Assembly: GCA_020633295.1 (NCBI GenBank)
Contig: JACKDW010000001.1
Span: forward strand, 1,277,828-1,341,827
Length of the DNA stretch: 64,000 nucleotides
Origin: Myxococcales bacterium
GTDB taxonomy: Bacteria; Myxococcota_A; Polyangia; Nannocystales; Nannocystaceae
Direction: 5' to 3'
Shown: positions 15,690 through 32,871 of the stretch, piece by piece
Position numbering within the stretch: position 1 is the stretch's first letter
Layout: every line of letters starts with the position of its first letter
Translations under genes and position numbers: made by a program
The notes under the pieces: generated by a model
Databases searched by the model: none
What the model saw: the letters and a program-made list of their open reading frames with translations, nothing else
What the model was told of the DNA's origin: nothing

Positions 15690-16874
15690 CTACGGGCACG
15701 GGAACAGGGCGTCGAGCGCCGCGATCCCGCCCATGATCTCGTCCCCCGAGGGGTTGTCGTTCGCCAGCAGGCTCGTGTAGATCCCCGCGTTCCCGGCGTC
15801 CGTGTCCTCCGCGGGCTTGATCAGGCCCTGGCCGGCCGTCTGCACGAAGGCCCAGTTCGCGTCGGCCTCGGACCCGCAGAGCCCGAACTGATCGGCCATC
15901 CGCTCGCGCACGACGAGCGCGAGCGCGTGGTTGTTGGCCTGGTCGAGCTGCGCCTTGCCGTAGCCGTAGAGCGGATCGTTGACGTCACCGTCCTCGGTCG
16001 ACATGTAGCCGTTTCGCCAGCAGCGCATCGCCGCGAGGCCGTCGAACACGCGCTGGTTCGCCTGCGAGCTGATCTGCTTGACGAAGCCGCCGAAGCCGAT
16101 CGCGCCGCCGGCCTGCTGACCGCCGCCGTAGTAGCCCCAGGCCGCGTCGCAGTCGCCCGAGTAGTCGGCCGGCGGACAGCTGAAGGTCGCCTCCTTGATG
16201 ACCGAGAGGTAGAGGAACCACGTGATCGCGCCCTCGACCTTGGCGGCGTTGACCATCGGGTCGCCCACGCCGTTCTGCCCGTCGTCGAAGGCCTGGTTGA
16301 TGATCGGCTGGATCTTCATCGGGCCCGCGCAGCGATCGGGGTACTGCTCGCGCAGCTCGAGGACCGTGCACTGCTTGTCGAATTCGACGCCCGCGTCCTG
16401 CTCGGACTCGGGGATGTTCGGGTAGTGCACGTCCTCACGACGCGAGAGGCGCGACTCGAGGCCCTGGGGCAGCGAGTACTGATCGCGCGCCGCGGTGAAG
16501 TCCGTGGGCGTGAGCCCCGCGTTGAAGATCACCATGATCTCCTCGAAGGCCTCGGTGCGCGCCGCGGCGCTGGGCTGCTCGAACGGGTGATACGTCCCGT
16601 CGTCGTTCTCGCACGCCGGCCACACGTCGTCGGCGGAGCCGTTCACGGTCGGCATGTAGTCGTTGGCGTCCGCCTGGCACGCGCTCTCGTCGAGCGGCGC
16701 GCTCGTCGGGTCCTCGTCGGCGCACCCGCCCGCCGTCGTGCCGTTGGTGCTCTCGGAGCCGTCCGAGTCCGACCCCGCGGTCGTGTCGGTGTCCGAGTCG
16801 CCGCACGCGGCCAGGACCAGCGCGCACAAAACCCCCAGGGAGGACCGAAGAATCTGATTTTTATCAAGTCGCAT
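15690..16874 (-). CDS. Secreted lipoprotein, function unknown
   Basis: Lipobox LVLAACGDS, then a Ser/Thr/Asp-rich linker and a Cys-containing globular domain. Confidence 0.7.
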   Translation of the reverse strand: MRLDKNQILRSSLGVLCALVLAACGDSDTDTTAGSDSDGSESTNGTTAGGCADEDPTSAPLDESACQADANDYMPTVNGSADDVWPACENDDGTYHPFEQPSAAARTEAFEEIMVIFNAGLTPTDFTAARDQYSLPQGLESRLSRREDVHYPNIPESEQDAGVEFDKQCTVLELREQYPDRCAGPMKIQPIINQAFDDGQNGVGDPMVNAAKVEGAITWFLYLSVIKEATFSCPPADYSGDCDAAWGYYGGGQQAGGAIGFGGFVKQISSQANQRVFDGLAAMRCWRNGYMSTEDGDVNDPLYGYGKAQLDQANNHALALVVRERMADQFGLCGSEADANWAFVQTAGQGLIKPAEDTDAGNAGIYTSLLANDNPSGDEIMGGIAALDALFPCP

Positions 16875-17208
16875 CGCCCCTTACATTTCACAAGCGCCGG
16901 GCGACAACAACGGGAGAGACCCTCGCTCTCACGGGGGGTTCCACGCGTCCACAGCGTCATCGTGCAATATGCCTCGGATGGACCACAGCAATTTCAACCT
17001 GTCGACATGACCAGAAATGCCCCCTGCCGCGCGAGGTGTTTCGCGGCCGGCTCGCGGCGCGCGCGAGCGAGCGCCGCAGCGCGCGAGCGTCCGTCGAGCC
17101 GCCGACGCCGCGATCGGAAGATGTTCGAAAGAACATCCCGCATCCGCGCGGCGCGACGAGACCGAGAGACGCGCGCACGCGCGGCGAGCTCGCGGTCCCT
17201 GTCGCGGA

Positions 17209-19614
17209 CTAGAAGCCGATCTGCACCTCGGCCATGAGCCCGCGCCCAGGCCCGTTCACGCTCGATCCGTGGTGGCGGTAGGCGGTGTCGAGGATGTTCT
17301 CGAAGGTCAGGCCGACGAGGATGTAGGGATCGAAGCGGTACCCGCCGCGGATGTCGAGCACGACGTAGCCAGGCGTGCCGCCGTCGGGGATCCGCGCGTC
17401 CTTGCCGTCCTGGGGCGCGAGCCGGGTCTGCGCCAGCGCCCACCGGACGACCCCGACCGCGTACGCGCCAAACCGCTTGCTGCGCCACCCCAGCTCGCCG
17501 ATGCCGTTGAGCGGCGGGATCCTCGACAGCGGCACGCGAGCGGGCTCGAGCGGCCGCCCGGCGTTGGGGTTGGCGCCCTCGCCCCACGCGTACGAGATCG
17601 TCGCGCGCGCGCCGAGGTCCAGCGGCAGGTAGAGCCGCACGCCGCCCTCGGCGCCCATCACGACCGCGAGCTCGTCGTAGTTGATCAGCTGCCAGCGGTT
17701 GCGCGACGCGAGGCAGCCCAGGTCGCCCTCGGGGCACTCCTCGAGCTCGCGGGAGGTCCGCTGGATCAGGTCGCGGATGGTCGTGCGATAGACGTGGGCG
17801 TCGAGCTCGATCCACGGGTGACGGACGAGGCCGCCGAGCTCAAGGGACAGCGAGCGCTCGGGCTTCAGGTCCGCGTTCTCGTACTGAAACCCCGGGCCGA
17901 TCTGCTGGCGCGAGGTCAGGTCGTCGAGGTTGGGCGCGCGGAACCCCTGGTCGACGTTGAACACGAAGGTGAGCCACTCGGTCGCGTCGCCGGCGATCCC
18001 GACGTTGCCGATGAGCGCCTCCCAGTGTCGATCGACCGGCTCCGACGCGGTCTCGGGCTCGCCGTCGGCCTGGGCCACGACGAGCGCGCCGCGGCCCCCG
18101 GCCTTGAGGCGGACGCGATCGACGAACTCGGTGTGCGCCTCGGCCCACACGCCCGAGGTCAGGTACTGGGCGCCGTCGAGGTACTGCCCGCGCGGCTGCG
18201 TCGACGTGATCCCCGTGCTCGTGTAGACGAGATCGAGGCTGCTCGAGATCCGATCGTAGTAGGCGTCGACGCCGTAGCGGACGCCGAAGGTGACCCAGGG
18301 CGCGAGCGCGAACTCCTTGGTGTCCAGCTTGAGCGCGATCCCGGCGCTGTTGACGTTGTCCTCGCCGTCGAGCTCGGTCGGCGAGCTCGAGCCGCGGTCC
18401 TCCTGGCGCAGCTCGTGCTGTCGTTGATACGACAGCGAAAGCCGCACGCGCTCCGCCGGCGACGGCCCGTGGCTGTGATCGTAGGCGCCGTACGCGAGCG
18501 TGCGGAACTGGTGCAGGTACGTGAGGCACTCATCCTGGGGCGCCGTCGGCGGCGGACACTTGTCCGTGCGCGGCGCGTCGAGCTGGCGATAGTCGTAGTA
18601 GCCGAGCGTGAAGCGGTGCTTGCGGCTCATCCGCCACACGAGCCGCGCGTCGTCGGTGACCTCGCGAAAGCCGGTGCCGAGCTGCGTCTTCTCGTCGTCT
18701 TCGAACACCGGGGGGACCGTCTGCGGCTCGCCGGTCCCGGGCGCGATGATCCGTCCGCCCGAGCGCAAGAGCCCGAGATCGCGGTAGCCGGCGCCGACCA
18801 GCAGCCCGAGCTTGCCGCCCAGGGACACCGAGGTCTGCGCGCGCCCGCCGGCCTGGCTGTCGGCGGTCGCGAAGCGCACGATCCCGCGGCCGTGGACCGC
18901 GACTTTCTTCTCGAGGTCCAGCGTCGGCTCGACGGGCGTCGCGAGCAGCACGCCGCCGAGCGCGTCGGCGCCCCACCGCGTCGAGCCGCTCCCGCGGATC
19001 ACCTCGAGCTGCTGAATCGAGCGCGAGTCGATGGTGAAGAAGTACTGGTTGGGCCCCTGGCGGAACGTGCTGTTGTTCAGGCGCACGCCGTCGAAGAACA
19101 TCACCGTCTGCTGCCCCGTGAGCCCGCGCAGGTACGGCGAGGCCTGGGAGTGCGCGGTCTGCTGAATGTAGACGCCGGGCTCGCCGCGCAGCGCGTCGGG
19201 GGTCGAGCGGGGCTGTCGCTCATCGAGCTCCGCCCGCGTCACGACGGAGCTCGCCCGGTCTGGCTCGCTCGGACGCGGGCGGCGCGGCTCGACGACGATC
19301 GTCCGCACCTCCACCCCGTCGTCATCGTCGTCGTCGTCCGCGTCGCGCTCGGTCTCCTCGCGCTCCGGCTTGCGCGCGGGCTCCTCGCGCGCGGGCTCCT
19401 CGCGCACAGGCTCTGGCCCCTCACGCTCGAGCTCCGACGGCTTCGACTCGACCGGCCCCTCCGGAGCGCGTCCGTCTCCGGACGCGCTCGCTGGGCCCAT
19501 GAACAGCAGGTATGCAGACGCGCAGGCAATGGTTCCGAGCGTCGAAGCCACGTTCCTCCGCTCCGCAGAACCTCGATCGTCACCGAGGTTCAAAATTTCC
19601 CGCGTAGCAGACAA
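17209..19614 (-). CDS. TonB-dependent outer-membrane receptor
   Basis: Signal peptide, plug domain, beta-barrel, and a C-terminal …AEVQIGF aromatic terminus. Unusual acidic N-terminal extension (EEPAREEPAR…DADDDDDDD). Confidence 0.85.
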   Translation of the reverse strand: MSATREILNLGDDRGSAERRNVASTLGTIACASAYLLFMGPASASGDGRAPEGPVESKPSELEREGPEPVREEPAREEPARKPEREETERDADDDDDDDGVEVRTIVVEPRRPRPSEPDRASSVVTRAELDERQPRSTPDALRGEPGVYIQQTAHSQASPYLRGLTGQQTVMFFDGVRLNNSTFRQGPNQYFFTIDSRSIQQLEVIRGSGSTRWGADALGGVLLATPVEPTLDLEKKVAVHGRGIVRFATADSQAGGRAQTSVSLGGKLGLLVGAGYRDLGLLRSGGRIIAPGTGEPQTVPPVFEDDEKTQLGTGFREVTDDARLVWRMSRKHRFTLGYYDYRQLDAPRTDKCPPPTAPQDECLTYLHQFRTLAYGAYDHSHGPSPAERVRLSLSYQRQHELRQEDRGSSSPTELDGEDNVNSAGIALKLDTKEFALAPWVTFGVRYGVDAYYDRISSSLDLVYTSTGITSTQPRGQYLDGAQYLTSGVWAEAHTEFVDRVRLKAGGRGALVVAQADGEPETASEPVDRHWEALIGNVGIAGDATEWLTFVFNVDQGFRAPNLDDLTSRQQIGPGFQYENADLKPERSLSLELGGLVRHPWIELDAHVYRTTIRDLIQRTSRELEECPEGDLGCLASRNRWQLINYDELAVVMGAEGGVRLYLPLDLGARATISYAWGEGANPNAGRPLEPARVPLSRIPPLNGIGELGWRSKRFGAYAVGVVRWALAQTRLAPQDGKDARIPDGGTPGYVVLDIRGGYRFDPYILVGLTFENILDTAYRHHGSSVNGPGRGLMAEVQIGF

Positions 19615-20040: not shown

Positions 20041-20751
20041 CTAGCCAGCGCGACCGACCAGCGCCTGCTCGCCCCGCAGCCGTCGGGCCAGGCGCGCCGC
20101 CGCGATCAGCGTGATCACGAGCACCGCGATCGCGAGCACCAGCAGCAGCGCGATGACGCCGTCGCCGAGCGCGTCGCCGCCAGCCCGCAGGGTCAGCAGC
20201 GGGAAGTCGTAGAGGCCGTGCAGGAAGATCGGCAGCGGCAGCGCCAGGATCAGCGCGCGCCCTTCGAAGCGGCTGCGCGCGACCCCGTAGCCGAGCAGCG
20301 CGCCGAGGGCCGCGTGACACGGCACCGCCGTCAGCGCGCGCACGACCGCGAGCCCGATGCCGCCGGTCGCCACGTACAGCACGTTCTCGAGGGCGGCGAA
20401 GCCGAGCGAGGCCGTGGCGCCGTAGACCAGGCCGTCCATGGGCTCGTCGAACGCGCTGTGCCGGCGCACGTAGAGCGCGAGCACGAGGAACTTGCACAGC
20501 TCCTCCGGGATCGCGGCGAACACGAAGGCGTCCATGGCCCCGAGCACGAAGGGGTCCTGGCTCACGGTCGCGAACGCGGCCTGCAGCGCGAGCACGTACG
20601 CGGCCACCGGGATCACCGTGAGCACGCCGAGCCCGAAGGTCGCTAGCACGACGCGGCCGGGCTCGGGGTAGCGATCGCTGAAGTAGAACACCAGCAGCAG
20701 CACGAGCGCGGGGAGGACCGCGGTCAGCAGCAGCACGAGCAGGTTGGACAT
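20041..20751 (-). CDS. prsW: PrsW-family intramembrane metalloprotease
   Basis: Multi-TM protein with EELCKF (EExxK) and a conserved FxxxH-like region. Lies 17 bp downstream of the ARH gene. Confidence 0.65.
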   Translation of the reverse strand: MSNLLVLLLTAVLPALVLLLVFYFSDRYPEPGRVVLATFGLGVLTVIPVAAYVLALQAAFATVSQDPFVLGAMDAFVFAAIPEELCKFLVLALYVRRHSAFDEPMDGLVYGATASLGFAALENVLYVATGGIGLAVVRALTAVPCHAALGALLGYGVARSRFEGRALILALPLPIFLHGLYDFPLLTLRAGGDALGDGVIALLLVLAIAVLVITLIAAARLARRLRGEQALVGRAG

Positions 20752-20768
20752 CGCGTGGCTCCTCCGCG

Positions 20769-22451
20769 TCAGTCGCCGAACAGCGAGAGCTGCGCGTCGG
20801 CCTCGGGCTCAGGTTCGGCTTCGCTCGCGCTGGGCTTCGCGGCTGCCTCGGGCATCTCGGGCTTCTCGGGCTTCTCGGGCTTCTCGGCTGCCTCGGGCTT
20901 CTCGGCCTTCGCGGCGCCGGCGGGCTTCGCCGCGCGCTCGGGCTTGGCGACGCGCTCGGGCTCGCCGGCGCGCGTGGGCTCGGCGCTCGTTGGCTTCGCC
21001 GCGCGCGCGGACCTCCCACCTGGCGCGGGCTTCGCCGACGCGGCCTTGACCCCGCGGCGCGGGCCCTGCTTCGCGGGCGCGCTCGGCCGCGCGTCGTCGT
21101 TGTCTTTGTCCTCGTCCTCATCGAAGACGAAGTCGGCGAGCGGGCTGGCGAACGGGCCCGAGCCGCCGAGGCGCGCCGGCGGGTCCTCGTCCTCGTCCTC
21201 GGCGGTGTCGGTGTCGAAGCCGGGATCGAGGGAGAACTTGCTGCCTGGCCCAAAGCCCAGGCCGAGCGGGCGCGGCTTGAACTTCGGGCGCTCCTTCGCG
21301 AACGGCTCGATCAGCTTCGTGGTCCACGCGCGCTCGAGCTCGACCAGCGACCGCGCCGGTCGCCACCCGCGGGCGCGCTGGACCATGGGCGGCACCCGAT
21401 CGTCAAACGCCCCGCGCGCGACCAGGTCCTCGAGCCACTCCGAGGGCACCGCGCCGAAGCCGAACGCGGCGCCGACCATCGAGCCCACCATCGCGCCGGT
21501 CGTGTCGGCGTCGCCGCCGAGGTTGACCGTGTCGAGGATGCCGTCGAACAGGCTGCGCGCCGTGAGCGTCATGTACAGCGACGCGATGACCGAGGCGACG
21601 GAGTAGCCCGACGTCGCGAACACGCGCCGGTCGGCGGTCTCGTTGGCGATCTTGGCGATGCCCGCGAGCGCCTGGCGACGCTTGCGATCGAACAGGCTGA
21701 GCGCGCGCCGCAGCGAGCTCGAGAACGTGCGGTCTGGGCTCGCGCCGCGCACGAGGCCGCGGTCGGACGCGCGCTCGTGCACGCGCGTCTCGATGTCGAT
21801 GACGAACTCGAGCAGGTCCGTCAGCTCGAGGCCGTCGAAGCCGCCCTCCTGCAGGCCGTGGGCCGTGACGAACGCGACCGCGGCGGCGCTGCCGACCCCG
21901 CAGGTGCTGTGCTGCTTGACCAGCGAGATGTCGATCACGCGCGCGCTCAGGGTCGCCAGGTCGTCGCGCCAGTACCAGGCCGCCGGCGCGATCAGCATGG
22001 CGTTGCCGTTGCCCGCGGACGGCTGGGACGCGCCGTACACACCGGCGCCCTCCTCGAGCTTGAGCACCGTGGTCCGGAAGTTGCGACCGGTCCCGCGGTG
22101 GTGCCCGAACATGTCGCGATCCTTGGGACCGTCGGTGTACAGCTCCACGAGCCCGCGCGCGAAGCCGACCGCGGGCGCGTCGGGGTCCTCGAGGATCGCG
22201 TCGCACAGCGCGATCGCCTGCTGCCCGTCGTCGGAGTGGAGCCCGCGCGGCCTGGGGCTCCAGCCCATGTTCTCCTCCATCATGGCGAGCACGCCGTAGC
22301 GCCGCTGGATCTTGCCCGGAGACCAGCCCTCGATGGGGCACCCCAGCGCGTCGCCGATCAGCAGGCCGTAGAGCGAGCCGCGGATCCGATCCGTGAGCAC
22401 GCTCGCGCTCGGACCGGTGTGGGTGCCGTCTGTCTGTGTCGTGGTCGTCAC
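20769..22451 (-). CDS. ADP-ribosylglycohydrolase (DraG/ARH family) with a Lys/Pro/Ala/Glu-rich C-terminal tail
   Basis: RIRGSLYGLLIGDALGCPIEG and the rest of the ARH fold. The C-terminal ~130 aa is low-complexity (AKPERAAKPAGAAKAEKPEAAEKPEKPEKPEMPE…LSLFGD). GTG start. Confidence 0.75.
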   Translation of the reverse strand: MTTTTQTDGTHTGPSASVLTDRIRGSLYGLLIGDALGCPIEGWSPGKIQRRYGVLAMMEENMGWSPRPRGLHSDDGQQAIALCDAILEDPDAPAVGFARGLVELYTDGPKDRDMFGHHRGTGRNFRTTVLKLEEGAGVYGASQPSAGNGNAMLIAPAAWYWRDDLATLSARVIDISLVKQHSTCGVGSAAAVAFVTAHGLQEGGFDGLELTDLLEFVIDIETRVHERASDRGLVRGASPDRTFSSSLRRALSLFDRKRRQALAGIAKIANETADRRVFATSGYSVASVIASLYMTLTARSLFDGILDTVNLGGDADTTGAMVGSMVGAAFGFGAVPSEWLEDLVARGAFDDRVPPMVQRARGWRPARSLVELERAWTTKLIEPFAKERPKFKPRPLGLGFGPGSKFSLDPGFDTDTAEDEDEDPPARLGGSGPFASPLADFVFDEDEDKDNDDARPSAPAKQGPRRGVKAASAKPAPGGRSARAAKPTSAEPTRAGEPERVAKPERAAKPAGAAKAEKPEAAEKPEKPEKPEMPEAAAKPSASEAEPEPEADAQLSLFGD

Positions 22452-22607
22452 GAGCGCGTCGCCTTCTGCCCGGCGCCGCCGGGAATCGCTGGCAGAGTAC
22501 GTAAACCCGCGCCCGCTGACGAGCCCCGCCGCGCGGGCGCGCGCGAAAACAGCGAGCGCGCGGTCGAGCGCCCGCAGCGCGAGCGCGGCGCTGATTTATA
22601 GTCGGCG

Positions 22608-23726
22608 GTGATGGGCACCGACGCACACAACGACAGCTACGCGGCGCTGTTCGCCGCGCTCCCGACGGCCGTGTTCATCATCAAGGAGGGGCGCCTCGAG
22701 CGAGTGAACGCGGCCTTCGCCGAGCTGCTGGGCAAGGCGCCGGACGAGCTCCACGGCACCCCGATCACCGAGCTCATCGCGCCCGAACACAGAGAGCTCG
22801 TCGTCGAGCGCTACCGCAGTCGACTCGCCGGCGAGGACGTCCCCGCGAACTACGAGTTCAACCTCCTGCGGCGCGACGGCTCGCGCCTGCCCGTGACGAT
22901 GGAGGCGCGCGTCGCCGAGCTCGGCGGCGAGCGCGTGACGATCGGGACCATCACCGACATCCGCGAGCAGCGACGCGCCAAGCAGCTGCTCGCCGCCGTC
23001 GCCCGCGGCGCGCCCATCGTGATCTCCGCCTACGACCGCGACGGGGTCTTCGAGCTCCAGACCGGCCGCGGCCTCGAGAAGCTCGGCCTCGCGGAGGACC
23101 AGCTCGTCGGCCAGAGCGTGTTTGATGCCTTCGCCGGGGCCGACGCCGCGCTCACGCAGATCCGCGCCGCGCTCGCGGGCGAGACCACCTACAACACCCA
23201 GGACCTCGGCGAGAGCATCTGGGACAACTGGTTCATCCCGCTGCGCGACCTCGCGGGCGAGGTCAGCGGCGCGCTCTCGATCTCGACCGACGTCACCGAC
23301 CGCGAGCGGACGCGCGCCGAGCTGCAGCGGCGCATCGAGATCATCGAGGCGCAGACGCGGGCGATCCGCTCCATGGCCGCGCCGATCATCCAGGTGTGGG
23401 CGGACGTGCTCGTGCTGCCGATCGTCGGCGAGCTCGACCGCGAGCGCGCGGCCGAGATGACCGAGCGCCTGCTCTCCGAGCTCGCGGCCCGCCAGGCGCG
23501 GCACGTGATCCTCGACCTCACCGGCGTCGAGGCGATCGACTCCGACACCGCGGGCCTGCTCCTGCGCGTGCTGGCGGCCGCGCAGCTGCTCGGCGTGAAC
23601 GGGCAGCTCTCCGGCATCCGCCCCGACGTCGCCCAGGCGCTGGTCTCGGCCGGCATCGACCTCTCGCGCGTGTCGACGGCGGCCACGCTCCACGACGGCC
23701 TGCGCCGCTGCATGGCCGCGAGCTAG
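22608..23726 (+). CDS. PAS-PAS-STAS sensor (anti-sigma-factor-antagonist-like output)
   Basis: Two PAS-like segments, then a SpoIIAA/STAS domain (VLVLPIVGELDRERAAEMTERLL…HVILDLTGVEAIDSDTAGLLLRVL). Confidence 0.7.
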   Translation: MMGTDAHNDSYAALFAALPTAVFIIKEGRLERVNAAFAELLGKAPDELHGTPITELIAPEHRELVVERYRSRLAGEDVPANYEFNLLRRDGSRLPVTMEARVAELGGERVTIGTITDIREQRRAKQLLAAVARGAPIVISAYDRDGVFELQTGRGLEKLGLAEDQLVGQSVFDAFAGADAALTQIRAALAGETTYNTQDLGESIWDNWFIPLRDLAGEVSGALSISTDVTDRERTRAELQRRIEIIEAQTRAIRSMAAPIIQVWADVLVLPIVGELDRERAAEMTERLLSELAARQARHVILDLTGVEAIDSDTAGLLLRVLAAAQLLGVNGQLSGIRPDVAQALVSAGIDLSRVSTAATLHDGLRRCMAAS

Positions 23727-24021
23727 CCCCCGCGACGAGCGCGTCGAACACGTCGACACGATCGCGCGCCCGAGCGGGCGTCGGACCGCTGCACAAGCGA
23801 CCTCCCCCCTGCGGGCGAGCGCGCGCGAGCGCGAGCGCGTCCCTTCGAAGGTCCATCACGGCGCCGCAGCGTCAGCGCGCAGACGAAGAGAAGCTCTTTT
23901 TGAAAAAATTCGACGGGGGCGCGTAGGGATTCGCTCCCGCCTGACACGGGGAGGATAGAGGCCGCAGGCGGCCTCGCGGACCTCACCCTCACCCTCGTGA
24001 CAGGCAACGGAGCGAACTACG

Positions 24022-24450
24022 ATGACGAACTTCATGGAATTTTATCAGAACGGCGGGATCTTCATGCACACCGTGACGCTGACCCTCGTCGGCGCGCTGG
24101 TGAGCCTCGCGATCCACATCACCACGCGCGCGCGCTCGCCTCGCCACCTCGACCTCGCCGCCGGGCTCGTGCGCGCCGGGGCGCTGTTCGGCGCGCTCGG
24201 GACGGTCATGGGCCTCATCGAGACCGGCATGGCGCTCTCGACCATCGGTGACCTGGCTGTTTGGCCACGCGCGCTCGCGCGCGCGCTGCCGATCGCGCTC
24301 TACCCGACCGCTTGGGCGCTGCTGTGCGCCTCGCCGGTCGTCGCGGCGCTCTGCGTGCTGCGCTTCCGGCACGCGCGCGTACGCGAGTCGCTCGCGCCCC
24401 GCGACGGCCACGCGCGCCTCGCCGGGAACCTCCACGCGACGGCGCCGTGA
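24022..24450 (+). CDS. Minimal MotA/TolQ/ExbB-family membrane protein (142 aa, 3 TM)
   Basis: N-terminal MEFYQNGGIFMHTVTLTLVGALV resembles the ExbB/TolQ start. The conserved GALGTVMGLIETGMAL (ExbB LGTVxGM motif) is present, but the ~90-aa cytoplasmic loop is absent. Confidence 0.55.
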   Translation: MTNFMEFYQNGGIFMHTVTLTLVGALVSLAIHITTRARSPRHLDLAAGLVRAGALFGALGTVMGLIETGMALSTIGDLAVWPRALARALPIALYPTAWALLCASPVVAALCVLRFRHARVRESLAPRDGHARLAGNLHATAP

Positions 24451-24459
24451 GACCGGGGC

Positions 24460-25629
24460 GTGTTCGAGGCCTTCGAATCGTCGCACCACTTCATGACCGG
24501 CTTCGCCGCGTGGACCGGTCTCCTGCTCGCGGCGCTCGCGACCGCGGTCCCGGTGCTGCAAGCGCTGGCGGCCGCGGCCGCGTATCTCAGCCGCGCGCTC
24601 CGGCGCGCGCTCGCGGTCACGCGCCGCCCCGCCGCTCGCGTCGCGCTCTCGCGGCACCCGCTGCGGCCCGACCTCCCGCGCGGGCTCGTGACGCTCGCCG
24701 CCCACACGCGCGTGCTGCTCGCGGCGCTCGAGCCCGCGCTGGCGGGCGCGCACCTCTGGCGCGACGGCGTCGCGCCGCGCTGGCTCGGCGACCCCGCGGA
24801 CCGCGAGTACGCCCCGACCATCGGCGTGACGGGCGAGGTCTGGGCCTGGCTGCAGAGCGCCGAGTCGCTGGGGGACGACTGCGCCAGCGAGCCGACGCTC
24901 GAGCCCGCGATCGCCCGCGTCCGCGCGGCGCTGTTCTCCGGCGTCCCGCTCACGCGGCGACTCGAGGCGGTGGCCGAGGCGCTCGTCTCCTTCGACCTCG
25001 GCCTGCGCGAGCGCGCCCCGCTGCGCTACCGCGGCGCCGCCCTGGCCGAGCCCCCGCGCCTGCGTCATGTCCACGAGCCTGACGGCGAGGTTCGCGGCGA
25101 GCTTCGCGGCGAGCTCGGCGAGCACCTCGAGGACGACGACGCCGAGGATCCACGCGCGCTGCGAGAGCGCCGCTTCAACACCGTGCTCGCGCGGCACGAC
25201 GCCTCGCTGCGCGCGGTCGCCCGCCGCTACGCCCGCGGCAGCGCCTGCGACGACCTCCACCAGGAGATCCGGCTCGGCGTGTGGAGGGCGCTGCCGGCGT
25301 TTCGCGGCGAGGCCTCGCTCAAGACCTACGCCCTGCGGATCGCGCGCTACTGCGGCGCGCGCTTCGTCCGTCGGCAGCCGCGCCACGAGCCCGAGCTCGA
25401 GCTCGTCGACGCCGGCCCGAGCGCCGAGGAGACCCTCGACGCGCGCCGCCGCGAGGCCGCGCTGACGCGCGCGTTCGCGGCGCTCCCGGAGACCCAGCGC
25501 GAGGCCCTGCGCCTCAAGCTCGCCGGCTGCTCGTACCGCGAGATCGCGACGCGCCTGAACATCAGCGAGACCAACGTCTCCGTCCGGATCACGCGGGCGC
25601 GCAAGTCGCTGCGTCCGCGCCCGGCCTGA
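24460..25629 (+). CDS. ECF sigma factor fused to a ~200-aa N-terminal membrane-anchored extension
   Basis: The C-terminal 190 aa has sigma region 2 (FNTVLARHDASLRAVARRYA…LHQEIRLGVWRAL) and region 4 (ALPETQREALRLKLAGCSYREIATRLNISETNVSVRITRARKSL). There is no ATG/GTG/TTG in frame between the TM segment (FAAWTGLLLAALATAVPVL) and region 2. Confidence 0.7.
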   Translation: MFEAFESSHHFMTGFAAWTGLLLAALATAVPVLQALAAAAAYLSRALRRALAVTRRPAARVALSRHPLRPDLPRGLVTLAAHTRVLLAALEPALAGAHLWRDGVAPRWLGDPADREYAPTIGVTGEVWAWLQSAESLGDDCASEPTLEPAIARVRAALFSGVPLTRRLEAVAEALVSFDLGLRERAPLRYRGAALAEPPRLRHVHEPDGEVRGELRGELGEHLEDDDAEDPRALRERRFNTVLARHDASLRAVARRYARGSACDDLHQEIRLGVWRALPAFRGEASLKTYALRIARYCGARFVRRQPRHEPELELVDAGPSAEETLDARRREAALTRAFAALPETQREALRLKLAGCSYREIATRLNISETNVSVRITRARKSLRPRPA

Positions 25630-25644
25630 CCGATCTGTGGCACA

Positions 25645-26172
25645 GTGAACGCGATGGACGACGTGAACGCGACGGACGACGCGCGCGAGCTCGCCGATCT
25701 GCGCAGCCGACTCGACGCGCTCGAGTCGACGCTGTCAGGAGCGCCGCTCGTCACTCTTCACGTCGTCGCGACCCCCGCGGGTCCGCTGCGCGTCGCGTTG
25801 ACCGAGCGCCTCCGTCAGCGCAGCAAGAAAGCCCGCGCGTGGAAGTGCCGCGCGATGCTGCAGACGCTGAAGAACGCGCGCTACGGGTTCCTCCCGGACC
25901 GTCCGCGCGCCCGCGGCGGGCTCGACGGCATCTTCCTCGTCGATCGCCGCTTCCGCCCGGTCAACGCGATGATGCGCAAGCTCTTCGACGGCTTCCTCGA
26001 CAAGCCGGGCTCGCCGGCGTCCGCCATCGCCGACGCGCTCGGCGTGCCGCTCGCGACGCTGCTGCCGGTGCGCCTCGTCTCGCACCACATGCGCCTGCTC
26101 GGCCTGCTCACGCCCGATCTCGACGGCGACGGCCGCGTGCTGGTGCTGGTCGACCTCGACGCGAGCGAGTGA
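25645..26172 (+). CDS. Hypothetical protein downstream of the ECF sigma
   Basis: 175-aa ORF with reasonable composition, 16 bp after the sigma stop. No family recognised. Confidence 0.4.
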   Translation: MNAMDDVNATDDARELADLRSRLDALESTLSGAPLVTLHVVATPAGPLRVALTERLRQRSKKARAWKCRAMLQTLKNARYGFLPDRPRARGGLDGIFLVDRRFRPVNAMMRKLFDGFLDKPGSPASAIADALGVPLATLLPVRLVSHHMRLLGLLTPDLDGDGRVLVLVDLDASE

Positions 26173-26283
26173 CGAGGTCGGTCGACCACGTCCTCCTACG
26201 CGGTCCTCCGCGACGCGGTCCGCGACGTCATCGCCCGAGGACGTCGCGCCGCCGTGATAGCTTCCCGGTCGGAGGAACGACGC

Positions 26284-27981
26284 ATGCGCCCATCTCGACC
26301 TTACTCCCCACGCTGGCTGCTCTCCGCGTGCGTGGCCATGACCGCCTGCTCCGGTGACGACGGCGCCAGCGGGAGCGACTCCGCGTCCACGACCAGCGAC
26401 GACGCGACGGCCGGCTCGGCGAGCAGCGCGACCGACACGACCGCGGGCGCGACCGCGGGCGCGACCTCGTCTCCGACGAGCGCGACGTCATCCCCGACCT
26501 CGTCTCCGACCTCCTCTCCGACCTCCTCTCCGACCGACGCGACGTCGTCGCCGACCGACGCGACATCTTCGCCGACGACGACCGACGCCGCGACCGACGC
26601 CACGACCGACGCCACGACGACCTTGACGACCGACGGCGCGACCTCGGACACGGGCGAGTGCGTGGGCGCCACGGCCTCGCTCACGCGCCCCGCCGACCCC
26701 ATCGTGCTCCGCGGCGCCGACCTGAGCGACGCCGACTGGGGCGGGCTCGCGCCGCAGCCCGGGGACATCGTCGCGTTCCGCTACGAGGGCGGCTGGCAGC
26801 AGATCCCGGTGCAGATCGACGAGCGAGACACGGTCTCGTTCTCCGACGTCTACAACGTCCAGAACAACTTCGACTGGGCGCGCGAGGACTACACCGACGC
26901 GGGCACCTTCACCGGGCCCGACGCCGACCCGACCTTCGACGACAACGACGAGCTCGTGCTGATGGCCCGCGACGCCGGCGACGAGGCCTGCGCCGCCGCG
27001 CCTGCGCCCGACGGCGTGACGCCGGGCAGCGGCGTCGAGCTGCGCGTCACCGACCCCCTGGATCAGGGCGAGGGCTTCGTCTACCTGTTCGTACAGGAAG
27101 GTGGGCTCGACCCCGCGGCCGGCGCCGCCTACGTCACCTACAGCTTCAACCTGCTCTCGGGCGCCTACAAGGCGACCTACGACACGCTCGACGGGCCCAA
27201 CCCCGAGAACACGACGATCGAGACCGACGCCTACACGCGCCGCTTCGCCGACCGCTGGATCACCGACGCGCTGCACATCACCGCCGGCGACGCGAGCGGG
27301 GTCGACATCCTCGATCGCCACAAGGCGCAATTCCCCGGCACCTGCGTGCGCAGCGAGGACACCTTCTCCAACGCCGAGGGCGCGTTCGTGGTCAACCGCG
27401 TCGGCCCGATCCGCGCGCTGCGATCCTACGTCGGCGCCAACAGCGGGCCGCTGACCCAGCGCACGCACCTGTTCTACGACCGCCGCGAGGACGTGATCAC
27501 CGACCTGCGCGTGCACGGGATCCCCGGCATCATGGACTTCTACGACTACGGCCCCATGGCCGCGGGCATGACCTACACGAGCGAGCTCGAGGGCGGCGGC
27601 GAGACGATCGACGGGGCCCCCGACACGCCCGCCGCCGGCCTGCCGACGTGGGAGCTCGTCTCGGGCGACCAGGGCTCGCTGACCCACGTGAGCTGGGTCG
27701 AGGCGTCGTTTAACGTGGCGGGGCTCGGCCACTGGTACCTCGACGACACGACGCCCAACGGGGTCGCGCAGTGCACGGGCGACACCTGGGCGTACGGACA
27801 GCACGGCCTGCTGATCTCCGGCAACATCCCCAACACCGACCCGCTCATGCAGGCGGCCCAGACCTTCGCCGGCCACCGCGTGCTCTACTACGACGCGCCG
27901 GGGCTCGACGACGCGGGCGCGAGCCAGCGCCACGACTGGGTGCACACGCCGCCGACGGTCGAGGCCGTCGCCTGGCCGTAG
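26284..27981 (+). CDS. Secreted lipoprotein with a Ser/Thr/Pro-rich linker
   Basis: Lipobox CVAMTACSG, a TSSPTSSPTSSPTD repeat linker, and a large globular domain. Confidence 0.7.
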   Translation: MRPSRPYSPRWLLSACVAMTACSGDDGASGSDSASTTSDDATAGSASSATDTTAGATAGATSSPTSATSSPTSSPTSSPTSSPTDATSSPTDATSSPTTTDAATDATTDATTTLTTDGATSDTGECVGATASLTRPADPIVLRGADLSDADWGGLAPQPGDIVAFRYEGGWQQIPVQIDERDTVSFSDVYNVQNNFDWAREDYTDAGTFTGPDADPTFDDNDELVLMARDAGDEACAAAPAPDGVTPGSGVELRVTDPLDQGEGFVYLFVQEGGLDPAAGAAYVTYSFNLLSGAYKATYDTLDGPNPENTTIETDAYTRRFADRWITDALHITAGDASGVDILDRHKAQFPGTCVRSEDTFSNAEGAFVVNRVGPIRALRSYVGANSGPLTQRTHLFYDRREDVITDLRVHGIPGIMDFYDYGPMAAGMTYTSELEGGGETIDGAPDTPAAGLPTWELVSGDQGSLTHVSWVEASFNVAGLGHWYLDDTTPNGVAQCTGDTWAYGQHGLLISGNIPNTDPLMQAAQTFAGHRVLYYDAPGLDDAGASQRHDWVHTPPTVEAVAWP

Positions 27982-28029
27982 CGCGGCGGGCACAACCCGC
28001 CTCGCGCGACATGTCCCATAAGACCTGTC

Positions 28030-28663
28030 TCAATCGGCGTCGCCGGGCGCCGTGACCGGCAGCCCGAGCGAGCGCAGCGCGCGACGCAGCGGGCCGATCG
28101 CGCCGCGGTCGTAGCGGATCCCGACGACGCCGCGGGCGCGCGCCGGCGCCAGCGCGCTGTCCTTGTCGTCGACGTAGGCGATCGCCGGCGGCGGGCAGCC
28201 GAGCACCTCCAGGAGGATCTCGACGAAGCGCGGGTCGGGCTTGGTCACGCCGTGCTCGTAGGACCACACCTCGTGGCGAAACAGGTGGCGAAACGGGTGA
28301 CGGGCGTCGAGGTGCTCGACGCGGCTGCGGATGTTGCCGGAGAACGCGACCAGCGGGACCTCGGCGTCGTGGAGCTCGCGCAGCAGCGAGAAGATCTCGG
28401 GATCCGGCGCATAGCTGGCATACCAGGCGTCGCGCAGCGCGTCGCAGGTCAGGCCGGCGGGCAGACGCGGCGCGGCCCAGCGCCAGAACGCATCCTCGTC
28501 CATCGTCCCCGCGCGCAAGGCCTTGGCCTCGGGAGCGCGGAGCAGCGCGATCGCGGCGCGGTGCTCGGGCGCGAGACGCCCGGAGTCAGGGAGCGCGCGC
28601 GTCCCGTCCGCGAACAGCACGCCGCCGAGATCAAAGGCGCAGAAACGGATCGTCGAGTTCACG
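28030..28663 (-). CDS. HAD-superfamily hydrolase (subfamily IA-like)
   Basis: GTG start. Motif I is FDLGGVLF, and motifs III/IV are KPDPRFVEILL…AYVDDKDSAL. Confidence 0.65.

Positions 28664-28785: not shown

Positions 28786-32871
<4,086 letters not shown>

Follow-up and report, generated by a model that had tools for sequence, protein, structure and literature searches.

The window analysed here is a 64,000-nucleotide (nt) stretch from a Myxococcales bacterium of the Nannocystaceae (GenBank assembly GCA_020633295.1, contig JACKDW010000001.1), whose counterpart in public data is the Myxococcales metagenome-assembled genome (MAG) GCA_020431325.1. It contains a row of four plus-strand genes encoding a PAS-PAS-STAS protein, a minimal ExbB-like membrane protein, an extracytoplasmic function (ECF) sigma factor with a long N-terminal extension, and an open reading frame (ORF) that we call ORF D (Table 1). 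Our subject is the sigma factor together with the ExbB-like gene directly upstream of it, and related loci, on genome or metagenome contigs that we compared with the window, are labelled L001, L002 and so on.

At about 72% G+C, the window has long ORFs in all frames, and codon-position G+C content (GC3) was our criterion for coding ORFs. All four genes were confirmed, with GC3 of 0.98, 0.92, 0.95 and 0.93 in the order of the row, the pattern of real genes, and the alternative ORFs that overlap them have the wrong codon-position pattern. The gaps between the four measure 295, 9 and 15 nt; the initial annotation had the latter two right and gave 296 for the first. Its domain calls for the four genes were borne out by Pfam and NCBIfam, ORF D being matchless, but its picture of a four-gene cluster holds for the genes and not for a conserved unit, since only the ExbB-like/sigma pair travels together across lineages. 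A scan of 22300-28200 for sigma-70 promoters found none, and no intrinsic terminator was found between the genes.

Table 1. Features of the locus, with positions counted in the window
Feature	Position	Strand	Evidence or remark
PAS-PAS-STAS protein (RsbR/YtvA-like STAS), upstream neighbour outside the proposed module	22608..23726	+	Pfam, NCBIfam
A/T tract, UP-element-like (TTTTTGAAAAA palindrome plus one A)	23897..23908	+	~15 nt upstream of promoter-like motif
Bipartite promoter-like motif CGTAGGGATTCGCTCCCGCCTGACAC; predicted autoregulated ECF-type promoter	23922..23947	+	74 nt before ExbB-like ATG
Leader hairpin GGCCGC-AG-GCGGCC	23960..23973	+	Alignment A5; leader block kept in three lineages
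Minimal MotA/TolQ/ExbB-like membrane protein, 142 amino acids (aa), 3 predicted transmembrane (TM) helices, no cytoplasmic domain	24022..24450	+	PF01618, TolQ alignment
ECF sigma factor, 389 aa, with 235-aa N-terminal extension	24460..25629	+	TIGR02937, family alignments A1 and A7, AlphaFold2 (AF2) model
Predicted N-out/C-in TM anchor (residues ~14-42), acidic 13-aa tail before, basic stretch after	24499..24585	+	Hydropathy scan; within AF2 helix 2-54
Cytoplasmic four-helix bundle (residues 74-183), no known family	24679..25008	+	
Acidic disordered linker (residues ~189-230)	25024..25149	+	pLDDT < 50 at 189-226
Sigma2 and sigma4 domains (residues ~238-385)	25171..25614	+	Pfam, NCBIfam, Foldseek
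ORF D, 175 aa, coding by GC3, lineage-specific, outside the proposed module	25645..26172	+	

The sigma factor and its N-terminal extension

The Pfam domains Sigma70_r2 (PF04542) and r4_2 (PF08281) cover residues 245-385 of the 389-residue protein and leave some 235 N-terminal residues over. The protein belongs to the ECF (group 4) sigma-70 family by its score of 92.9 bits against TIGR02937 (cut-off 42.9), and the best Foldseek matches of its sigma domains are E. coli sigmaE, AlgU and M. tuberculosis SigH. It falls into none of the NCBIfam ECF subfamilies (RpoE, SigZ, SigM, Sig-70_gvs1, PG0214 and others), where the best scores were 56-58 bits against cut-offs of 124-130; each of the 25 subfamily or equivalog models listed, of 66 matched, stayed under its cut-off.

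The extension is real and promoter-delimited. The initial annotation allowed that the first 200 codons might be untranslated, but GC3 is 0.94-0.99 across them, and in five other lineages a promoter-like motif, described below, lies 11-13 nt before the homologous start. Its proposal that the sigma factor is membrane-tethered through its own extension was likewise sustained, by conservation from the first codons in 30+ homologues, by a hydrophobic helix with basic residues and by a confident fold. An initial search returned three full-length sigma homologues of 40-67% identity, with extensions that align from residue 1, and a 4-sequence alignment of the extension yielded 3 genome loci. Word-indexed protein searches gave merely 3-6 relatives for the sigma factor, the ExbB-like protein and the extension profile; the family was exposed by an exhaustive search of 1.84 billion cluster representatives with an extension-only profile. 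This family of stress-type sigma factors is rare, comprising 31 clusters at 50% identity, with sources in Plesiocystis pacifica SIR-1, Enhygromyxa salina, Nannocystaceae MAGs and one Polyangia MAG. Except for two fragments, the members are 330-426 aa long; the extension is N-terminal in every case, ECF sigma domains are recorded for each member looked up, and none of the 31 clusters consists of a stand-alone extension without a sigma factor.

A hydropathy scan found an N-terminal hydrophobic segment of 20-35 residues followed by Arg/Lys-rich sequence in all family members. In the window protein, the 13 residues ahead of this segment are acidic and the segment itself contains no acidic residue. 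By the positive-inside rule, the acidic tail and the basic stretch predict an N-out/C-in anchor with the sigma domains in the cytoplasm. A cleaved signal peptide was considered for this N-terminus and rejected, given the acidic tail before the hydrophobic segment and the need for the sigma domains to remain cytoplasmic.

An AF2 model built with the 31-sequence family alignment has a mean predicted local distance difference test score (pLDDT) of 84.8 and comprises a helix at residues 2-54, four helices at 74-183, a disordered stretch at 189-226 and the sigma domains. Confidence is high for the helix, for the bundle and for both sigma domains, and the relative placement of the domains is left unpredicted because the predicted template modelling score (pTM) of the full-length protein is low, at 0.44. 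W130 and R155 in the bundle and R191 in a YRG motif just past the last helix are invariant family-wide, Y190 is nearly so, and the linker keeps its acidity across the family but not its sequence. The extensions of 27 members share no Pfam family (three matches, each in a single member, had E >= 0.087), and no relative of the four-helix bundle was found in Pfam or the PDB. Nor did Pfam or NCBIfam detect an anti-sigma domain in any neighbour; ORF D (+1) and the ExbB-like gene (-1) are both without such a match, so the locus is not a classical ECF/anti-sigma pair, as the initial annotation had said of the downstream side.

Membrane tethering of an ECF sigma factor with proteolytic activation is established for IutY of Pseudomonas putida (ECF243) and has been proposed for ECF48, ECF52, ECF53 and some of ECF36 (PMC8999054). 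The tethered factors described are C-terminal fusions (IutY, ECF48/52/53) or, in ECF36, carry N-terminal 3-4 TM helices with DUF2275 (PMC8999054). The window protein resembles them in that a sigma2/sigma4 core is tethered by its own extension with no separate anti-sigma factor, and a logic of sequestration and release is likely to be common to both; it differs in its N-terminal, single, N-out helix with a periplasmic part of ~13 residues, in its four-helix bundle and acidic linker, in having no ZAS, FecR or DUF2275, and in its recurrent ExbB-like partner. With one hydrophobic segment and no shared Pfam family, it is not an ECF36-type N-terminal fusion. N-terminal ECF extensions are less frequent and generally shorter than C-terminal ones and are easily overlooked, with BldN, SigC and sigmaR' as examples (PMC7826278). 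BldN (ECF121, a pro-sigma), SigC (ECF36s4) and sigmaR' (ECF12s1) share with the window protein an ECF core regulated through an N-terminal extension, but no membrane helix is noted in them (PMC7826278), whereas the extension here has 235 aa and a hydrophobic start. BldN is also under the anti-sigma RsbN, and the window locus has no such gene. In Bacillus subtilis, an N-terminal pro-sequence keeps pro-sigmaE and pro-sigmaK membrane-associated and inactive until cleavage; these are group 3 sigmas with pro-sequences of 20-29 residues and dedicated proteases (SpoIIGA and SpoIVFB) encoded nearby, and they resemble the window sigma in their N-terminal membrane-associating sequence without being related to it in sequence. 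None of the descriptions of IutY, ECF48/52/53, ECF36, BldN, SigC and sigmaR' unites, as this locus does, one N-terminal anchor with a four-helix bundle of no known class, an acidic linker and a partner of the ExbB type. The main text of PMC7826278 describes no ECF group with this architecture, and a full-text literature search for a pairing of ECF sigma and ExbB-like genes returned nothing relevant. We place the finding among the ECF sigma factors with a membrane-tethering regulatory extension, as a variant of them and not as a new category.

Recurrence of the ExbB-like/sigma pair and its motif

The ExbB-like protein belongs to the MotA_ExbB family: it scores 31.3 bits with PF01618, for which the cut-off is 22.9, and covers profile positions 40-120 of 127. 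Its alignment with TolQ spans residues 125-202, the TM2-TM3 core, and an identical protein is named MotA/TolQ/ExbB family protein at NCBI. Its N-terminus, MTNFMEFYQNGGIFMH, is kept across homologues, which speaks for a start at the ATG at 24022 and against the shorter version called at NCBI. Like the MotA/TolQ/ExbB stators (TolQ structures 8odt and 9kpz; PF01618), it has the TM2-TM3 core, a GxxGTVxG-like stretch and a predicted N-out topology with three TM helices. Unlike them, it has no cytoplasmic domain between TM1 and TM2, and a sigma factor takes the place of a TonB, Pal or flagellar system as its partner. Other ExbB-like genes turned up in the comparison. The canonical 210-aa ExbB genes of L032, L034 and L035 are each trailed by two ORFs of ~180-215 aa. 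In L021 and L031, a minimal ExbB-like gene is divergent to a conventional 203-aa ECF sigma gene and a 187-aa unknown ORF. A second orphan group of minimal proteins (~160 aa; L022, L023, L024 and L029) shares another upstream motif, GCCGGTTTCTT..GGTTSGAGAAACC, at ~470-540 in L022, ~3900-3960 in L023 and L029 and ~830-890 in L024, and in L023 and L024 the orphan gene lies upstream of a convergent radical-SAM/DUF2344 gene.

The ExbB-like gene is directly upstream of the sigma gene in six lineages: window/L005, L001/L015, L006-L010, L018, L019 and L026. The first three are close, with sigma or ExbB-like proteins 63-70% identical to those of the window, and they share the order dynamin-like GTPase, PrsW, ADP-ribosylglycohydrolase, PAS-PAS-STAS, ExbB-like, sigma, HAD hydrolase, kinase-AAA_16, TetR, Coq4; because of this long-range synteny, adjacency within that group says little. 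In L018, L019 and L026, by contrast, the ExbB-like gene is again immediately upstream of the sigma gene and the flanks are entirely different. The homologue in L018 has 158 aa (hhalign probability 99.3%, E = 1.7e-20), that in L019 has 131 aa with PF01618 recorded, and that in L026 has 129 aa and is followed by a sigma of the Plesiocystis-type branch, so the pairing spans both deep branches of the sigma family. The neighbourhood check proposed in the initial annotation thus gave a narrower result than a conserved four-gene row: synteny of all four did not hold, and the pair alone recurs. That annotation also named a minimal ExbB-like channel; the family stands, but its weight was undervalued, the ExbB-like gene being the one conserved partner.

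The pair is accompanied by a promoter-like motif. The window, L001 and L006 share a conserved stretch of 80 nt ahead of the ExbB-like gene, with unrelated sequence farther upstream, and its core in these three lineages is GTAGGGATT-N11-GACAC; the family consensus is yGTAGGGAWy-N10-11-sGACAC. The strict form GTAGG-N14-17-GACAC occurs once in the 64-kb window against 0.12 expected. Non-redundant related loci, 248 kb in all, contain 10 copies, where mononucleotide shuffles gave a mean of 1.9 and dinucleotide shuffles, scaled, ~0.5. All 10 are on the gene strand, and each is followed within 100 nt by an ExbB-like gene or by a sigma gene with the N-terminal extension. With the close variants in L016, L018, L019 and L020, the motif is found upstream of the ExbB-like gene, the sigma gene or both in all lineages examined except two. 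Where the genes are 33-92 nt apart (L018, L019, L026), each has a separate copy; in the window clade, with gaps of 6-9 nt, a single copy lies upstream of the ExbB-like gene. An orphan ExbB-like gene beside a patatin gene (L027) also has the motif.

Copies proximal to the sigma gene (L011 7965-8001; L016 ~1826-1864; L018 3825-3863; L019 1845-1883; L026 1452-1489) stop 11-13 nt short of the start codon and have the sequence GACAC-TGTC, which fixes the start of the extension independently and implies leaderless or near-leaderless sigma mRNAs in these five loci. The GTAGGG block does not fit a -35/-10 sigma-70 pair conserved across lineages; the GGGAAy block, 16 nt upstream of GACAC-TGTC, resembles the canonical ECF layout GGAAC-N16-CGTC. 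Autoregulation is the rule in ECF operons, and we infer that the motif is a promoter recognised by the sigma factor itself.

Other elements of this upstream region are conserved in part. The initial annotation had noted the palindrome TTTTTGAAAAA, which is present but lies one position further on (23897-23907, not 23896..23906). Its A-run is invariant in L001 and L006 while the palindromic symmetry is not kept, and T- or A-tracts occur at the matching relative position in L011, L016, L019 and L027. The predicted 5' leader of the ExbB-like gene (23948-24021) carries a ribosome-binding stretch, GGAGCGAACTACGATG, that is invariant in the three lineages, and its hairpin reads GGCGGC-TGAS-GCCGCC in L001 and L006, with one compensatory pair change relative to the window. 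The window has no Rfam match at gathering thresholds, so the conserved leader is no known riboswitch or small RNA.

In the window, L001 and L006, the sigma ORF continues the frame of the ExbB-like ORF; TGA and 9 nt separate the two in the window, and the gap is 9 nt in L001, 6 nt in L006 and 33-92 nt in L018, L019 and L026. Stop-codon read-through to a fused ExbB-like/sigma protein was rejected in view of these wider gaps and because no fused protein exists among the 31 family clusters.

One could still see at this locus ordinary adjacent genes, with the N-terminal region of the sigma factor explained as a wrongly called start or an addition of no function. The PAS-PAS-STAS gene and ORF D, two of the four, do prove to be unlinked neighbours; however, the extension is conserved, confidently folded, coding-constrained and promoter-delimited, and the ExbB-like/sigma pairing recurs in unrelated contexts. 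We give this explanation very little credence.

A putative two-gene regulatory module

With the sigma family and its architecture, the recurrent two-gene pairing in unrelated contexts and the motif that co-occurs with both genes established, we hold, with slightly more confidence than doubt, that the functional unit is not a four-gene cluster but a two-gene autoregulated module of a membrane-tethered ECF sigma factor and a minimal ExbB-like regulator. Both genes would be transcribed from the family-specific promoter with its ECF-like GGGAAy block. Anchored on the cytoplasmic side of the membrane by its own N-terminal helix, the sigma factor would remain inactive or restricted until a signal arrives at the membrane; the part bearing sigma2 and sigma4 would then be freed, most simply by intramembrane or juxtamembrane proteolysis, for which IutY and pro-sigmaK may serve as models, with the cut falling within the membrane, close to it or in the linker. 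The cognate regulator in the membrane would be the ExbB-like protein, binding or shielding the anchor and taking the usual place of the anti-sigma factor, and the freed sigma factor would boost transcription of its own operon. The periplasmic stub of ~13 residues resembles a site-1-processed anti-sigma factor, and a protein with such a stub would at once be a target of a site-2 protease if nothing shielded it; a shielding role for the ExbB-like protein is an appealing guess.

Several observations weigh against this proposal. The contact supposed between the ExbB-like protein and the sigma anchor is hypothetical, and the predicted N-out orientation of the anchor is opposite to that of the ExbD, TolR and MotB helices. 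The full-length AF2 model, with its low pTM, gives no evidence for a docked, autoinhibited state. No protease gene is conserved beside the sigma family, and the motif could be an operator for some other regulator. A proton channel of this family would have an adjacent ExbD/TolR/MotB-type partner with a TM aspartate, but a Pfam scan of the window genes at 10.8-35.2 kb gave no ExbD/TolR/MotB match. The TolQ proton-path residues T145, E173 and T178 are not conserved in the three closest orthologues of the ExbB-like protein: Ala replaces the equivalent T61 in P0006, Leu replaces T96 in P0006 and P0007, and the E173 position is Ile. With no cytoplasmic domain, no such partner gene beside it and variable proton-path residues, the protein is doubtful as a proton-driven motor. 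A metagenome scan found more minimal ExbB-like relatives (129-162 aa), which are motif-free orphans in unrelated contexts, so the small-protein family is broader than the sigma pairing. Finally, no ExbB-like gene is found within the available flanks of L002, L004, L011 (Plesiocystis), L013, L016 and L020, so that in these six lineages the partner would be unlinked or dispensable.

This last observation leads to the main rival, in which the extension regulates by itself, the bundle acting as an in-cis anti-sigma and/or the linker as a DNA mimic like sigma1.1, with the ExbB-like protein as a membrane effector among the outputs of the regulon. It would account for the half of the family lineages that have no adjacent ExbB-like gene and for the invariance of W130, R155 and R191 together with the conserved acidity of the linker; the motif-bearing orphan gene of L027 behaves as a regulon member, and ECFs with regulatory extensions commonly have no separate regulator (PMC7826278, PMC8999054). 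We consider this rival rather unlikely.

The two-gene module could also take a more specific form, which we think unlikely, in which the ExbB-like protein forms a ring around the TM helix of the sigma factor, the anchor occupying the place of ExbD, TolR or MotB and the state of the ring gating exposure to an intramembrane protease; membrane potential, lipid or envelope stress would be the inputs. If true, this would be a sigma factor gated directly by a stator-like complex, a new link from membrane energetics or integrity to transcription, and the MotA/ExbB fold would gain a new role.

ECF sigma factors are a major bacterial signalling system whose control is usually read from a neighbouring anti-sigma gene. 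The locus offers a compact alternative that standard annotation misses, a sigma factor with its own N-terminal anchor whose sole recurrent partner, at 130-160 aa, is a remnant of the ExbB/TolQ/MotA stator fold. Should this partner indeed regulate release, the known repertoire of both the sigma and the ExbB families would widen, and the shared motif provides a handle for regulon prediction in Nannocystaceae genomes.

Neighbouring genes

The initial annotation had placed the PAS-PAS-STAS protein and PrsW in the control circuit, through partner switching or proteolysis. In such a circuit, the PAS-PAS-STAS protein would sense a signal and its STAS domain would bind the extension or a hidden anti-sigma factor, or PrsW would cleave the tethered sigma. 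The domains are real (PAS_9/PAS_4 and STAS, PF01740, 55 bits), and the linker and STAS are of the RsbR/YtvA type. PrsW is present as stated, ~2 kb upstream (20041-20751, minus strand, beside the ADP-ribosylglycohydrolase gene), these genes adjoin the pair in three related lineages, and a tethered sigma factor requires some releasing protease. However, the adjacency of the PAS-PAS-STAS gene is confined to close relatives of the window, which share long-range synteny anyway; in L001, a 947-aa Ser/Thr kinase-TPR gene is inserted between it and the ExbB-like gene; neither PAS-STAS nor PrsW accompanies any of nine more distantly related family loci; and the ExbB-like/sigma unit is set apart by its own promoter-like motif. 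The STAS protein scores 38.1 against the cut-off of 53.45 for TIGR00377 (anti-sigma antagonist), and no RsbW/SpoIIAB-type kinase (HATPase_c_2) or PP2C phosphatase (SpoIIE) was found among the 18 neighbouring proteins scanned. The synteny of PrsW being equally restricted, the comparative data give it no support, although proteolytic release of the sigma factor in general is plausible. A circuit built on STAS or PrsW is thus improbable, which corrects the first reading of the locus: the sensor and the protease are unsupported as its parts, and the PAS-PAS-STAS protein (a light/redox-type sensor) and ORF D are local neighbours only. As a photoreceptor of the YtvA/LOV kind the protein does not qualify, with 79.6 bits against a cut-off of 250 for NF052652, a match covering residues 225-362 (linker and STAS), and with no NCRFLQ-type LOV motif visible in the sequence of PAS1.

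The divergent arrangement of PrsW and ADP-ribosylglycohydrolase (minus strand) facing PAS-PAS-STAS (plus strand) is found in the window (20041-23726), L001 (1664-6406) and L006 (3150-6760), and may be a separate functional module unrelated to the sigma factor. L001 has a second PAS-STAS gene (378 aa) beyond PrsW. In L005 (981-1685), PrsW is called as two pieces of 174 and 36 aa where the window ORF is intact at 236 aa, probably a difference of assembly or calling.

ORF D has no Pfam, NCBIfam or PADLOC match, PADLOC having found no defence-system match for five proteins, and tblastn found no homologue in any related locus; on alignment, it has no real similarity to the genes downstream of distant sigma homologues. 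The ORF that follows it, of 575 aa, is likewise without a Pfam, NCBIfam or PADLOC match or a homologue in related loci, and in L001, the closest relative with a long contig, neither has a counterpart between the sigma and HAD genes. The two (25645-27981) look like a lineage-specific insertion, and the membership in the cluster that the initial annotation gave to the unknown ORF falls away. The start of the 575-aa ORF is uncertain, because the frame signal at 26250-26500 is ambiguous and an antisense ORF (26301-26768) also has GC3 of 0.94. The ExbB-like gene, the sigma gene, ORF D and the 575-aa ORF (24022-27981) all share one frame (coordinate mod 3 = 1).

Farther downstream, at 28786-32871, lies a Pkinase-AAA_16 gene of 1361 aa with a counterpart in L001. 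One could therefore envision control of the sigma factor by Ser/Thr phosphorylation as in ECF43-type groups, with the anchor merely localising it, since kinase-linked ECF groups have no anti-sigma factors (PMC7826278) and Pkinase-TPR proteins of 932-951 aa are encoded near family members in L001, L011 and L013. However, no kinase is near L002, L018, L019 or L026, and positions and orientations vary between loci. Myxobacterial genomes are rich in Ser/Thr kinases, which makes proximity weak evidence, and we regard this explanation as quite improbable. Large kinases near family members lie at L001 6611-9454, L011 11863-14661, L013 14064-end and window 28786-32871, in sizes of 932-951 aa (Pkinase-TPR) and 1338-1361 aa (Pkinase-AAA_16); their proximity may be chance.

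A TonB-dependent receptor gene 4.4 kb upstream recalls the FecI-FecR-FecA systems (ECF239-243), in which ECF control is likewise linked to the ExbB family and the membrane. Here, by contrast, there is no FecR-like anti-sigma, Pfam detected no signalling (STN) domain on the receptor, and the receptor has no counterpart at the matching position in L001. It has 801 aa (Plug and barrel) and lies with a 394-aa ORF without a Pfam match at 15690-19614, between the genes for the dynamin-like GTPase and PrsW.

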